A stretch of 38,085 nt of DNA from a virus. Positions 32,859 through 36,222 of the stretch are shown one piece after another. The notes below the pieces were generated by a model. It was given only the letters and a program-made list of their open reading frames with translations. It had not been told where the DNA came from and searched no databases. Positions within the stretch are counted from its first letter, which is position 1; each line of letters opens with the position of its first letter. Where the stretch lies: UHGV virus genome UHGV-0010575; one strand, 5' to 3'. The translations under genes and the position numbers were made by a program.

Positions 32859-33182
32859 TTAATCATCCATGGATGGATTGAGCTTATCACGTGTTGATGT
32901 GGCGATTTGTCCTACATTCCTAAGCCAAGATTTCAAATCCTTGATATTGTCATTGATTTCATGAATATCTTCTTTTTTTAATCTGTTAATATTATTCTCA
33001 ATAATTTCAATGGATTGCTCAATATCAGATATAGTGAATGATAGTTTGTTCTTCTCATCTTTTATTGAGTTTTTAAGTGCTTCGTTCTCAGTCTTGAGGT
33101 CAGATATCTTTTGTTTTAAAGATGCCAGTTGGTACTGAACCACAATGAGTGCGATAGCTATCGCGATAACTGTTGTATACAC
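32859..33182 (-). CDS. Unrecognised small membrane-anchored coiled-coil protein (107 aa)
   Basis: ORF in track; N-terminal TM (YTTVIAIAIALIVVQY) then heptad-rich region; AT-rich. Confidence 0.5.
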   Translation of the reverse strand: MYTTVIAIAIALIVVQYQLASLKQKISDLKTENEALKNSIKDEKNKLSFTISDIEQSIEIIENNINRLKKEDIHEINDNIKDLKSWLRNVGQIATSTRDKLNPSMDD

Positions 33183-33204
33183 ACCAACCTCCTTAGTTGA
33201 TATT

Positions 33205-33624
33205 TTATTTGTATGAAATCAACGAGTTAAGCTCCCTCTCATTTAGAGATTGGAATCTTTTTTCAGTTATATCAATGATGGCTGGCAATAGTTTTTTTAC
33301 CTTCTCATGACCATCAGGTTTAATGATAGCAATGATCTGGATATGAATTGGATATGTGTTGTGTACCGCAAATATCAAAAAGTTATCGCTAACTCTACGA
33401 TGTATTGGCGTTGTTCTTAACCAAGGATCATCTACTCCAGGGATCCTGATGTGCGACTTGTAAATTCCCGATAAGACGGCGTGATGGTTTCTCTCAAACC
33501 CACCAATCTTACCAAGATAAGCTGAAACGGTGCCTCTGTTTTTGTAGTTTGCAAGAGCCTTCGCAAAGTATTGTTCTAATGGTCCAGCCGCTGCATCTAC
33601 AACAATGCTTATGCGGTTTTCCAT
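33205..33624 (-). CDS. Unrecognised protein (139 aa); weak resemblance to YafO-type toxins
   Basis: ORF in track; C-terminal IAIIKPDGHEK... segment resembles YafO ILKPEPH region (recall, low confidence). Confidence 0.45.
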   Translation of the reverse strand: MENRISIVVDAAAGPLEQYFAKALANYKNRGTVSAYLGKIGGFERNHHAVLSGIYKSHIRIPGVDDPWLRTTPIHRRVSDNFLIFAVHNTYPIHIQIIAIIKPDGHEKVKKLLPAIIDITEKRFQSLNERELNSLISYK

Positions 33625-34208
33625 TTTGGTGCTTCCATGCCAAATCTTTTATGTGAATCTTCAACTGATTTCTTGAAGGAAGCCAACTCTTCTTCAGTGA
33701 ACTCTTCAGGTTCAGCATATGATAGTGGTATGTGCTGCATTGCTAGCGTCACAAGCCCCATTGTTAGCCTTTTGTATTCTATAAAAGTATTGATTGAGTG
33801 GTTTTTCATTGTTGTAAGAGTTGACATATGGGGCTTCCACGCATCGCTGTTCTCAGCGATGAAGAAGGTATACAACAGTTTCGCGATACCATAATCAAGC
33901 TTAGATATCTGATCGTTCAACATATCTACATCGTCATGTTGAATATCAAGTGAGGAAATATCTTCTTCTGTACCATTACTTAATATGTCAATGAATGTAA
34001 TGTACTTTTTGCAAACTTCCTCTACAGGTGACATAACGCAGTAGATCTTGCTAAGAGCTTCAGAAGCCTGTTTTTTAGACAAAGAGCCGCTATGACTGCG
34101 ATCAAAGTCTGAAATTGAACGCTCGATAGATGTTGATATGTCAGAAAAAACGTTTTCAATTTTTCCTGGCTCTTGATTCAGGATGGCCATAACGCCTATC
34201 TCAATCAC
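33609..34208 (-). CDS. Unrecognised acidic protein (199 aa)
   Basis: ORF in track; GTG start (alternative ATG at 34190); overlaps downstream gene by 16 nt. Confidence 0.45.
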   Translation of the reverse strand: MIEIGVMAILNQEPGKIENVFSDISTSIERSISDFDRSHSGSLSKKQASEALSKIYCVMSPVEEVCKKYITFIDILSNGTEEDISSLDIQHDDVDMLNDQISKLDYGIAKLLYTFFIAENSDAWKPHMSTLTTMKNHSINTFIEYKRLTMGLVTLAMQHIPLSYAEPEEFTEEELASFKKSVEDSHKRFGMEAPKWKTA

Positions 34209-34250
34209 AATGTATACCTTGTTATTTTATATCAACGAACAAACATTGAC

Positions 34251-34499
34251 CTATCTGGTCTCGTACATTTTTTTCAGGGTTTCAAACACCATCTTCTTAA
34301 CAATTTCTGCTTGCTGATCAGCCATGCGTTCTGCTTCGTCACGGTAACCTGCAATCGGTGATGGTTTTGATAGCGCATCCTGAACGATTTGTAATAACTC
34401 AGAGTTCATTGACCTTCCGTTAGCCTCGGCTCTTAATTTCAATTTTTCTCTTACTTCCAAAGGCATACGGAAGTTAAAGTGCGGATCATCTCTAGCCAT
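34251..34499 (-). CDS. mnt: Mnt repressor (ribbon-helix-helix)
   Basis: MARDDPHFNFRMPLEVREKLKLRAEANGRSMNSELLQIVQDALSKPS... closely matches recalled P22 Mnt. Confidence 0.7.
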   Translation of the reverse strand: MARDDPHFNFRMPLEVREKLKLRAEANGRSMNSELLQIVQDALSKPSPIAGYRDEAERMADQQAEIVKKMVFETLKKMYETR

Positions 34500-34522
34500 G
34501 CCATCACTCCAAGTTAGTATCT

Positions 34523-34786
34523 CTAACTTTCGTCTTTATTGTTGCCATACATGCATTTCAACTTCTCAACATCATGTTCAAGATCTATCAATCGTGATGC
34601 TATAGTTGCAAGGTCTAGTGCTTGAATGTGTTTATTTTTTTCGGTCCATGCTTCAAGTGCAGCGACCATCTCAGCATTTAATGAACGAGAATTAGCCTCA
34701 GCCAGTTCAATAAGACGTTCCTTTATCTCTACAGGAAGCCTCAGATTCACTTGAGGGTTTTTGTACTTACGATCAGACATCGGCAC
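34523..34786 (-). CDS. Second ribbon-helix-helix (Arc/Mnt-family) protein (87 aa)
   Basis: PQVNLRLPVEIKERLIELAEANSRSLNAEMVAAL RHH signature. Confidence 0.55.
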   Translation of the reverse strand: MPMSDRKYKNPQVNLRLPVEIKERLIELAEANSRSLNAEMVAALEAWTEKNKHIQALDLATIASRLIDLEHDVEKLKCMYGNNKDES

Positions 34787-34885
34787 ACCCTGAATAATTT
34801 TTTACCACAGGATATGTAGGTGTCTATTGACTATCAATGCGTACCTAAATACTATGTATGCGTACCACATACAGCGGAGGATGCA
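34787..34885. promoter_or_regulatory. Divergent immI control region (candidate Pmnt/Pant and operators)
   Basis: Intergenic region between divergent RHH genes; inverted repeats ATTGA-cta-TCAAT and TGTATG-N7-CATACA, direct repeat TGCGTACC x2. Confidence 0.45.
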
Positions 34886-35026
34886 ATGAAGGTAAAAACA
34901 CTGCGTATGCCAGAGAAGTTAGAAAAAATCCTTGAAGAGAAAGCAAAGGAAGAGTGTCGATCGTTTAGCGCAGAAGTAATTAAACGGGTGCTGGACAGCT
35001 TGAAGAGAGAGGGGGTGATGGTATGA
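34886..35026 (+). CDS. arc: Arc-like repressor (ribbon-helix-helix, 46 aa)
   Basis: Internal ATG with GGAGG SD; RHH pattern KTLRMPEKLEKILEEKAKEECRSFSAEVIKRVL. Confidence 0.6.
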   Translation: MKVKTLRMPEKLEKILEEKAKEECRSFSAEVIKRVLDSLKREGVMV

Positions 35027-35226
35027 GTAAAGAATGTTGTTTCTGCGGCATTAGCGAATCAGACACTGATCAAACATACATTTACTCTAAAGAAACAGGT
35101 CGGATGCTGTGTAGTGACTGCGTGTTGGACATCATAAGATACAAGCATCTTGGATGTTCTGCCAGCATTAGCAATATAGGTGAAGTATACGAAGGGAAAG
35201 ATATAACTGATAGAGCAGAAAGTTGA
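35023..35226 (+). CDS. Small Cys-rich (zinc-ribbon-like) protein (67 aa)
   Basis: ATGA overlap with arc stop; CxxC...CxxC pattern (CCFCG ... CSDC). Confidence 0.4.
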
Positions 35227-35288
35227 AGCCCCAACTGCGGGAACAGTCAGGGCTTCGGTATCAACAAAACTTACGAGGTATTATTGAT

Positions 35289-36179
35289 ATGTCAAGCTTA
35301 GCAAAGTCAGCTGTAAATTGCACTAATAGCATCATCATTTCTGACGTCAAGATTCATATGGATTCAGAGGGTCGTTACTCGCTTAATGACCTTCATGTAG
35401 CGTCTGGAAAGGAGGAAAAACATCAGCCAGCTTTCTTCATGCGTAGAAATGAAACTATTGAATTGATTAATGAAATTTTTAATTCTGCGGATATGCAGAA
35501 TAAGAATCCCGTCATTTCTAAGAAAGGTAGATATGGTGGAACATACGTGTGCAAGGAGCTTGTTTACTCCTACGCCATGTGGATTAGCGCAGCATTTGCG
35601 CTGAAGGTTATCCGCGCATATGACGCAATGGTTACTGCCACACAAGAGAGGAAGGCTATTGGCGGTAAAACTTCAGTAGCTGAACGCACGCCGCTACGCG
35701 ATGCAGTAAACATGCTGGTAGGAAAGAAAGGACTTCGCTATGACGATGCATACAATATGGTTCATCAGCGTTTTGGTATTGACAGCATTGATGAACTTTC
35801 AATTGAACAAATCCCGCTGGCCGTAGAGTACATCCACAGGGTAGTGCTTGAAGGTGAGTTCATTGGCAAACAAGAGAAGAAAACCAACGAGCTTTCTGCA
35901 AAAGAAGCAAACAGCCTTGTATGGTTATGGGATTATGCCAACCGCTCACAGGCATTATTCCGCGAATTGTATCCGGCATTAAAACAAATTCAATCGAACT
36001 ATTCCGGCAGATGCTACGACTATGGTCATGAGTTCTCGTATGTTATCGGAATGGCGAGAGACGTTTTAATAAACCACACACGAGATATTGATATTAATGA
36101 GCCAGACGGACCAACGAATCTTTCCGCATGGATGAGACTTAAGAATAAAGAATTACCTCCTTCAATACATAACTACTGA
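35289..36179 (+). CDS. ant: Antirepressor (KilA-N domain N-terminus)
   Basis: Position downstream of arc; KilA-N-like N-terminal region; start at internal ATG of track ORF. Confidence 0.6.
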
Positions 36180-36197
36180 CAGATAACCAACGCAACG

Positions 36198-36222
36198 ACC
36201 CAGCTTAGGCTGGGTTTTTTTA
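36198..36222 (+). terminator. Rho-independent terminator (ACCCAGC-UUAG-GCUGGGU + U7)
   Basis: Perfect 7-bp stem and long T-run between ant and tailspike. Confidence 0.7.

Follow-up and report, generated by a model that had tools for sequence, protein, structure and literature searches.

A mosaic CUS-3-type immI region in a P22-like Escherichia coli prophage, with an orphan mnt gene and a small cysteine-containing reading frame

Which of two tandem mnt-like genes controls the antirepressor of a P22-like prophage, and what is the place of an additional small reading frame between arc and ant? These questions are raised by positions 34,251-35,226 of UHGV virus genome UHGV-0010575, a viral DNA of 38,085 nucleotides (nt; the whole of it is called the window below). 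We find that a P22-like Escherichia coli prophage has its antirepressor control region here, of the immI type carried by coliphage CUS-3 (the 'ant moron'; King et al. 2007; Villafane et al. 2008). Our reading, to which we give a probability of about 70%, is that the region is a product of mosaic recombination that works on the P22 principle. The DNA itself is already public and the kind of circuit, immI, is already known. To our knowledge, P22 immI is a textbook circuit whose natural variants are almost unstudied.

The region contains the following features, where Cys ORF stands for the open reading frame (ORF) with four cysteines, and lengths of proteins are in amino acids (aa).

34251-34499, minus strand: mnt1, 82 aa, Pfam Arc (1.1e-27) and Repressor_Mnt (2.5e-15)
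34500-34522, minus strand: spacer of 23 nt between mnt2 and mnt1, a recombination junction by comparison with P22
34523-34786, minus strand: mnt2, 87 aa from the GTG at 34786, Pfam Arc (3.4e-10)
34809-34873: control region with predicted promoters Pant and Pmnt and two 16-bp direct repeats (promoter scan, repeat search)
34886-35026, plus strand: arc, 46 aa, Pfam Arc (33.8 bits, cut-off 20.4)
35023-35226, plus strand: Cys ORF, 67 aa with four cysteines, phrog_7150
35221-35287, minus strand: sar antisense RNA, Rfam RF00262 (69.7 bits, gathering score 43)
35289-36179, plus strand: ant, 296 aa, Pfam KilA-N and P22_AR_C
36197-36216, plus strand: intrinsic terminator of the arc-ant operon (terminator scan)

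A reading made earlier from the sequence alone had pointed out four of these ORFs: a tandem pair of Mnt-like ribbon-helix-helix (RHH) genes, arc and the Cys ORF. All four are there, according to the ORF list, the raw sequence and Pfam. The ATG of the Cys ORF (35023-35025) overlaps the TGA of arc (35024-35026), so that the proposed ATGA coupling is indeed seen. Two parts had been left out, the sar RNA and ant proper. Positions 34200-35262 are 99.8% identical in DNA to CUS-3 (CP000711), which shares with the window both mnt genes, their junction, arc, the Cys ORF and the downstream orf199, YafO-like and hkcB genes. CUS-3 differs in the N-terminal domain of ant, which in the window is KilA-N and Emek-like, and in the tailspike, which in CUS-3 is an endosialidase. 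The block mnt1-mnt2-arc-Cys ORF was found at a coverage of at least 80% in 44 of 5426 complete E. coli genomes, NU14 among them. The arrangement is no chance pattern of ORFs, as the mnt2/mnt1 junction recurs identically in CUS-3, NU14 and 8 IMG/VR prophages. The sequence-only reading had named, as the case against itself, a common conserved feature of known function. The arrangement is in fact conserved in sequenced relatives; a known function was not found for it in the annotated ones.

The window shares with P22 immI its logic, gene order, RHH repressors, divergent overlapping promoters and sar and terminator, and in Ant the P22_AR_C domain. It differs from P22 in lacking the operators Oarc and Omnt, in having an arc and a cognate mnt of a different specificity type, in an extra orphan mnt of P22 type, in an extra ORF between arc and sar, and in the N-domain of Ant (KilA-N instead of P22_AR_N). 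The small RHH protein Arc is encoded by the first gene of the ant operon, as expected for immI, with a GGAGGA Shine-Dalgarno sequence at 34876-34881. Its N-terminal strand MKVKTLRMPE is identical to that of Arc from Salmonella phage SEN22, and its C-terminal half resembles those of E. coli phages 611R6, phiv205-1 and EC.P3. The sar RNA lies across the ribosome-binding site of ant, being a full-length match to RF00262 (E 7.8e-14) whose sequence is complementary to that of the ant leader, the Shine-Dalgarno sequence included. Compared with P22, its 5' hairpin is preserved by different bases and its terminator hairpin is nearly identical. The ant gene is 98% identical in DNA to that of Salmonella phage Emek, and both Emek and P22 have the terminator of the arc-ant operon annotated at the corresponding position.

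It has been reported that CUS-3 apparently has no arc and that its ant must be controlled differently (Villafane et al. 2008, PMC2629481). In the CUS-3 record both mnt genes are annotated, and arc and the Cys ORF are buried in a 'boundary sequence' feature. The Prokaryotic Genome Annotation Pipeline (PGAP) calls arc an 'Arc family DNA-binding protein', one of three 'Arc family' genes that it now calls in this region. Judged from these sequences, the published absence of arc from CUS-3 is an annotation artefact. This corrects the published view: the switch is a complete mnt/arc/sar/ant one, with a different operator specificity.

We then considered which of the two mnt genes belongs to this switch. 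Both were counted as Mnt proteins, with an RHH N-domain followed by a C-terminal tetramerisation domain, mnt1 on the basis of Pfam and mnt2 of phrog_795, a PHROG that mnt2 matches over its full length and to which mnt1 also belongs; Pfam gives only Arc for mnt2. The CUS-3 record and PGAP start mnt2 at the ATG at 34780, which gives 85 aa. A mnt2-type gene is the only mnt in SEN22 and in an E. coli O104:H4 prophage. In its control region, and in the N-termini of mnt2 and arc, the window agrees with these two. Within a core of 65 bp (34809-34873), 62 of 65 bases are the same in SEN22 and 64 of 65 in O104:H4. For mnt2 against SEN22, the ratio of non-synonymous to synonymous substitution rates (dN/dS) is 0.028, with a dS of about 2.6 at which synonymous sites are saturated. 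Since the core is nearly identical to that of SEN22 while the synonymous sites of mnt2 are saturated, it is under strong constraint. Because the near-identical control region is accompanied in SEN22 and in O104:H4 by a mnt2-type gene alone, mnt2, the 99-bp control region and arc form one co-inherited cognate module. The earlier proposal that mnt2 is the extra repressor is consequently reversed: the odd one out is the P22-like mnt1, whose own promoter and operator are gone. What holds of that proposal is that the switch is of immI type and contains, beyond what P22 has, another Mnt-like gene and another small ORF.

The mnt and arc-ant operons diverge from overlapping promoters, another immI trait. 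The promoter scan predicted Pant on the plus strand (TTGACT-17-TACTAT, 34827-34855) and Pmnt on the minus strand (TTGATA-17-TATCCT, 34837-34809), back to back and with a -35 region common to both. Two 16-bp direct repeats, ACTAT[C/G][A/T]ATGCGTACC, lie at 34830-34845 and 34851-34866 with a spacing of 21 bp; the copies read ACTATCAATGCGTACC and ACTATGTATGCGTACC. One covers the shared -35 region and the other the -10 and +1 of Pant. None of 2000 shuffles reached a repeat of 14/16 matches, and we regard these repeats as candidate RHH operators. A 19-bp palindrome (TGTATGCGTACCACATACA, 34855-34873) had been the first candidate for the Mnt2 operator; it was dropped as a chance feature, being matched by 26% of shuffles. 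The 17-mer Omnt of P22 (AGGTCCACGGTGGACCT) was not found anywhere in the 38-kb window at up to 3 mismatches, and its 13-mer core gave 6 hits against 5.0 expected by chance. The control regions of the window and of P22 do not align, and neither Omnt nor Oarc of P22 is present in that of the window. Given that the P22 operators are absent, the switch should have another specificity and not P22's own immunity type.

A plus-strand, terminator-like hairpin with a T-run was also noted at 34739-34756, antisense inside mnt2. It could attenuate read-through of the late operon into the immI region.

The history of mnt1 is of another kind. Its DNA is 84.6% identical to P22 mnt (dN/dS 0.083), and residues 1-13 of the protein are the same as those of P22 Mnt. 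Mutagenesis by Knight and Sauer is said to have placed the base-contacting residues of Mnt within residues 1-13. The homology to P22 covers mnt1 and 21 nt of its 5' untranslated region and ends at 34520, where the promoters and operators start in P22. This P22-like leader, with its Shine-Dalgarno sequence (34500-34520), adjoins the stop codon of mnt2. According to this comparison, mnt1 is a P22-type mnt stripped of promoter and operator at a single recombination junction. No promoter or terminator was predicted in the 23-nt spacer (34500-34522) by the promoter and terminator scans. We infer from the short spacer, the kept Shine-Dalgarno sequence and the lack of predicted signals that mnt1 must be read from Pmnt. 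Modules with a P22-type mnt circulate in E. coli, as seen in complete E. coli genomes. Phages L, ST64T and ST104 carry orphan mnt genes without ant (PMC8022706, PMC2629481), and like the window they have thus kept a mnt homologue without its cognate ant operon. The window differs from them in that the orphan stands in tandem behind a complete heterologous immI, whose promoter it would use.

In one tandem-mnt prophage (L019, 3268-5973) ant is cut after 105 codons, and mnt1, mnt2, arc and the Cys ORF are intact. The ORFs that follow the cut look like an insertion sequence of IS66 type.

The other addition is the Cys ORF. The cysteines of its product are arranged as C5-x2-C8-x21-C30-x2-C33, it matches phrog_7150 over its full length, and its TGA stop falls in the conserved block of the sar terminator. 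A search of 5.8 billion proteins returned only near copies from E. coli and Salmonella and a 68-aa Salmonella clade of about 35% identity. This clade was found in 536 blocks of an assembly collection; in every locus read it comes after a distinct 52-aa arc, overlaps the arc stop and precedes sar and ant. No variation was seen among 20 sequences of the protein at C6, C8, C30, C33, F7, G9, K23 and T25; at least 90% of these sequences have C5, and the C-terminal 25 residues are variable. A HMMER scan of 1.8 billion representative proteins gave one true homologue (P0013, 68 aa). The other 12 hits, longer proteins matched in several stretches, were treated as spurious; two of them (P0007 and P0010) are repetitive eukaryotic proteins with immunoglobulin domains. 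No relative was found among the GTDB species-representative genomes, and PADLOC and NCBIfam gave no match for the Cys ORF or for the RHH genes. The ORF occurs in hundreds of E. coli and Salmonella genomes, mostly left out of RefSeq annotation.

A 112-aa fusion of Arc and the Cys protein (P0001) was seen in public assemblies and is explained by an AGAGAG tract 2 nt shorter than that of the window (35003-35015), just before the G5 run and the ATGA overlap. The shortened tract could be a sequencing error or a slippage-prone site.

Comparison of related loci showed that the Cys ORF occupies a slot between arc and ant in which at least four unrelated families of small ORFs are found, all of them overlapping the arc stop. 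The other three are the following.

Emek (orf73) and 611R6: 73 aa, phrog_11805
phiv205-1 and the O104:H4 prophage: 57 aa, phrog_17642
EC.P3: 89 aa with a hydrophobic N-terminal stretch, phrog_27312

They share with the Cys ORF its position, the 4-nt overlap with the arc stop and the boundary at the sar terminator; they differ from it in having unrelated sequences without the cysteine motif, and their PHROGs are of unknown function. The slot is empty in P22, SEN22 and epsilon34. It is bordered by the conserved 3' end of arc (CTGAAGAGAGAGGGG), which is also the source of the Shine-Dalgarno sequence, and by the sar terminator, whose block provides a TGA that is the stop of all three ORFs compared (the Cys ORFs of both clades and the 57-aa ORF of O104:H4). 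Across 29 IMG/VR loci, copies of the Cys cassette are 97-100% identical, and they are nevertheless combined with three types of module (8 with tandem mnt1 and mnt2, 8 with mnt2 only and 12 of 611R6 type) and with several N-domains of ant. Because one cassette is found with three module types, in a slot shared with unrelated ORFs, the Cys ORF looks like an exchangeable accessory early-gene cassette rather than a core regulator. It had been proposed from the sequence that it adds a regulator to the switch; nothing shows this, the slot ORFs being interchangeable and the cassette not tied to one module.

The Cys protein shows a weak resemblance to the N-terminal zinc-binding domain (ZBD; PF06689, PROSITE ClpX-type ZB) of ClpX. 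The two have in common the C4 motif (CxxC...CxxC), the FCG signature and a similar spacing, and a beta-hairpin followed by a helix after the second CxxC is predicted for the Cys protein too. The Cys protein differs in being free-standing, with 67 aa and no AAA+ module, and in an inter-cysteine spacer 3 residues longer. The Salmonella homologue is named 'ClpX-type ZB domain-containing protein' in UniRef. Alignment of the family by hhalign with five ClpX N-termini gave a probability of 76% (E 2.3e-5), with all four cysteines and the FCG motif aligned. In favour of the resemblance, zf-C4_ClpX is the sole Pfam hit of the homologues P0013 and P0019. Two results tell against a ClpX assignment: the scores of these hits, 13.2 and 10.2 bits, fall far short of the gathering score of 27, and no Pfam hit at E up to 10 was obtained with the window protein, which thus stays below the threshold of the ClpX-ZB family. 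The search of PDB sequences returned RNF4 RING fingers alone (E at least 0.007, a generic cysteine pattern), and a fold search gave generic protein-binding zinc fingers and no structural match to ClpX. A literature search for phage inhibitors that are zinc fingers of ClpX type, or for ClpXP control of antirepressors, found nothing relevant. By its sequence the protein is thus ClpX-ZB-like, and we do not count it among the members of that family. It is probably a zinc-binding treble-clef protein.

Whether mnt1 has a role can be weighed on the record of its copies. We suggest, at slightly less than even odds, that Mnt1 serves as a trans-acting immunity factor against foreign antirepressors. The alternative is that mnt1 is a mere recombination scar, transcribed but roleless, in what would be functionally a plain one-Mnt immI. 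Such a scar would account for the loss of promoter and operator; one ancestral junction explains all mnt1 copies, and other P22-like phages keep mnt remnants of doubtful function (PMC8022706). We nevertheless consider it unlikely, since mnt1 is intact in every tandem locus examined (8 IMG/VR loci, CUS-3 and NU14), its Shine-Dalgarno sequence has been retained, and its N-domain is nearly unchanged. In residues 1-47 the window copy differs from six tandem loci by 0-1 residue and from a further one (L046) by 5; dN/dS within tandem loci is 0.009-0.047, although as many as 16 synonymous differences are present. Among these loci the part for oligomerisation, at the C-terminus, is mosaic. Taken at face value, these values indicate that mnt1 is under strong purifying selection. 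Furthermore, an independent tandem Mnt-like pair, with another junction and another distal gene, sits upstream of the same Cys cassette in a different prophage (L031; IMG/VR uncultivated virus genome 2684622670_000013, 2100-2800). Mnt stacking has thus arisen more than once, and the independent pair suggests that it is selected. Three points weigh against our reading of the regulatory part: the operator assignment hangs on a single pair of repeats, the dS of mnt1 is about 1 beside an identical junction, so that the purifying signal could come from recombination with functional alleles, and the trans-acting role of Mnt1 is purely inferred.

For the Cys ORF the corresponding doubt is whether it is a gene at all. 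It could be a frame that is open by chance or in decay, lying between arc and sar as part of their spacer: it is absent from the CUS-3 annotation and PGAP makes no call for it, dN/dS between two copies of the Salmonella clade is about 1.2, and about 300 E. coli genomes of O157 type carry it frameshifted by a 1-nt insertion after nt 17. These facts speak against a functional gene. The selection tests are uninformative, with only 5 polymorphic sites in 32 copies (2 synonymous and 3 non-synonymous, in the E. coli clade) and 17 substitutions between the Salmonella copies. In the O157-type genomes the module consists of mnt, a truncated arc, the frameshifted Cys ORF and an intact ant (e.g. L008, 3859-4302, O157:H7 TR01) and lies between the lambdoid tail genes L and K, adjoining nleL, with the Cys region unannotated; since arc, too, is truncated in them, decay there extends to the module as a whole. 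All 32 copies examined from P22-like contexts are intact. The DNA of the E. coli and Salmonella clades can be aligned over the first 26 nt only, and both keep the same length, the ATGA/GTGA overlap with arc, the same stop and the motif ECCFCG...K.T...C..C, which implies constraint at the level of the protein. A Shine-Dalgarno-like GAGGGGG precedes the start by 8-14 nt, and an AlphaFold2 (AF2) model from a 5-sequence alignment has a pLDDT (its per-residue confidence score) of about 75 over the zinc-finger core (residues 1-40), with a beta-hairpin, then a helix, and a disordered tail. A chance frame is therefore very improbable, and we read the Cys ORF as a real, narrowly distributed gene that in all likelihood is translated. 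Its product might instead act as a small, accessory antirepressor or as a partner of either Arc or Ant, for example by binding and inactivating the repressor of another prophage, in the manner of small-protein induction modules, or by modulating Ant. The ORF appears always to be co-transcribed with, and immediately upstream of, an ant-type gene; small proteins beside regulators can inactivate prophage repressors (PMC10432266); and generic protein-binding zinc fingers are all that the fold search yields. We hold this to be doubtful, because the Cys ORF is paired with three types of arc and at least three types of ant N-domain, which leaves no single partner, unrelated ORFs can take its place, and the ClpX-type ZB domain is the only family-level signal in its sequence. 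A mimic of the ClpX N-domain is our low-confidence best guess for the Cys protein, and an action on ClpX-dependent proteolysis seems to us improbable.

Based on this architecture and on P22-like logic, Mnt2 very probably represses Pant in lysogens, and Arc and sar shut ant after infection. In the lysogen, Pmnt would transcribe mnt2 and mnt1 and probably also the downstream orf199, YafO-like and hkcB-like genes. Mnt2, bound to the 21-bp-spaced repeats over Pant, would silence arc, the Cys ORF and ant. Mnt1, with the recognition strand of P22 Mnt and no site in its own genome, could work in trans on superinfecting phages, at a Pant provided with an Omnt of P22 type, and so prevent an incoming antirepressor from inducing the resident prophage, a 'stacked' form of immI immunity. 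Upon infection, or upon loss of Mnt2, a burst from Pant would yield Arc and Ant together with the Cys protein, whose translation would be coupled to that of arc; after the burst Arc would close both promoters and sar would limit the translation of ant. The Cys protein would be a treble-clef zinc-finger micro-protein of ClpX type with a disordered acidic tail, and it could mimic or occupy partners of the ClpX N-domain, altering ClpXP-dependent turnover during the burst. The boldest version joins both additions: the Cys protein as a free-standing mimic of the ClpX N-domain, made stoichiometrically with Arc, and Mnt1 as a deliberate 'immunity stack'. There the mimic would form heterodimers with ClpX, or titrate its adaptors or the degrons that depend on the N-domain, and would shield Ant or other phage proteins from ClpXP, and the tandem orphan Mnt1 would silence the antirepressors of competing P22-type phages. 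We consider this combination quite unlikely.

Three points appear to be undescribed in the records and literature that we reached: that an orphan Mnt is stacked here, that an arc was overlooked, and that a cassette slot holds a ClpX-ZB-like micro-protein. Stacked Mnt repressors of heterologous type may be a means by which a prophage disarms the antirepressors of rivals, which bears on prophage conflict in polylysogens. A second idea is that the arc-ant junction offers a cassette slot to small proteins made solely during the first minutes of infection; among these is one that resembles the substrate-recognition domain of ClpX.

Some observations concern the neighbouring genes. Three genes lie downstream of mnt1 (32859-34208, minus strand), with no predicted terminator between. 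The product of orf199 matches phrog_18235 and has no Pfam hit; the gene has a 16-nt overlap with a 139-aa toxin-like gene of the YafO family (PF13957, 3e-11). This is followed by a 107-aa hkcB-like gene whose product has a hydrophobic N-terminus and weak hits to families of coiled-coil type. The trio is also present in CUS-3, in NU14 and in a Salmonella locus (L017). This may be a toxin-antitoxin or defence pair with a non-canonical partner, expressed from the prophage. The window has no gene of the ClpP family. Many Salmonella and E. coli relatives carry one, for a 178-aa protease, directly after mnt with stop and start overlapping (L010, 3968-4504; L012-L016, 3967-4503; L003, 1533-2069; L004, 1536-2072), and some loci contain both this gene and the ClpX-ZB-like Cys ORF.

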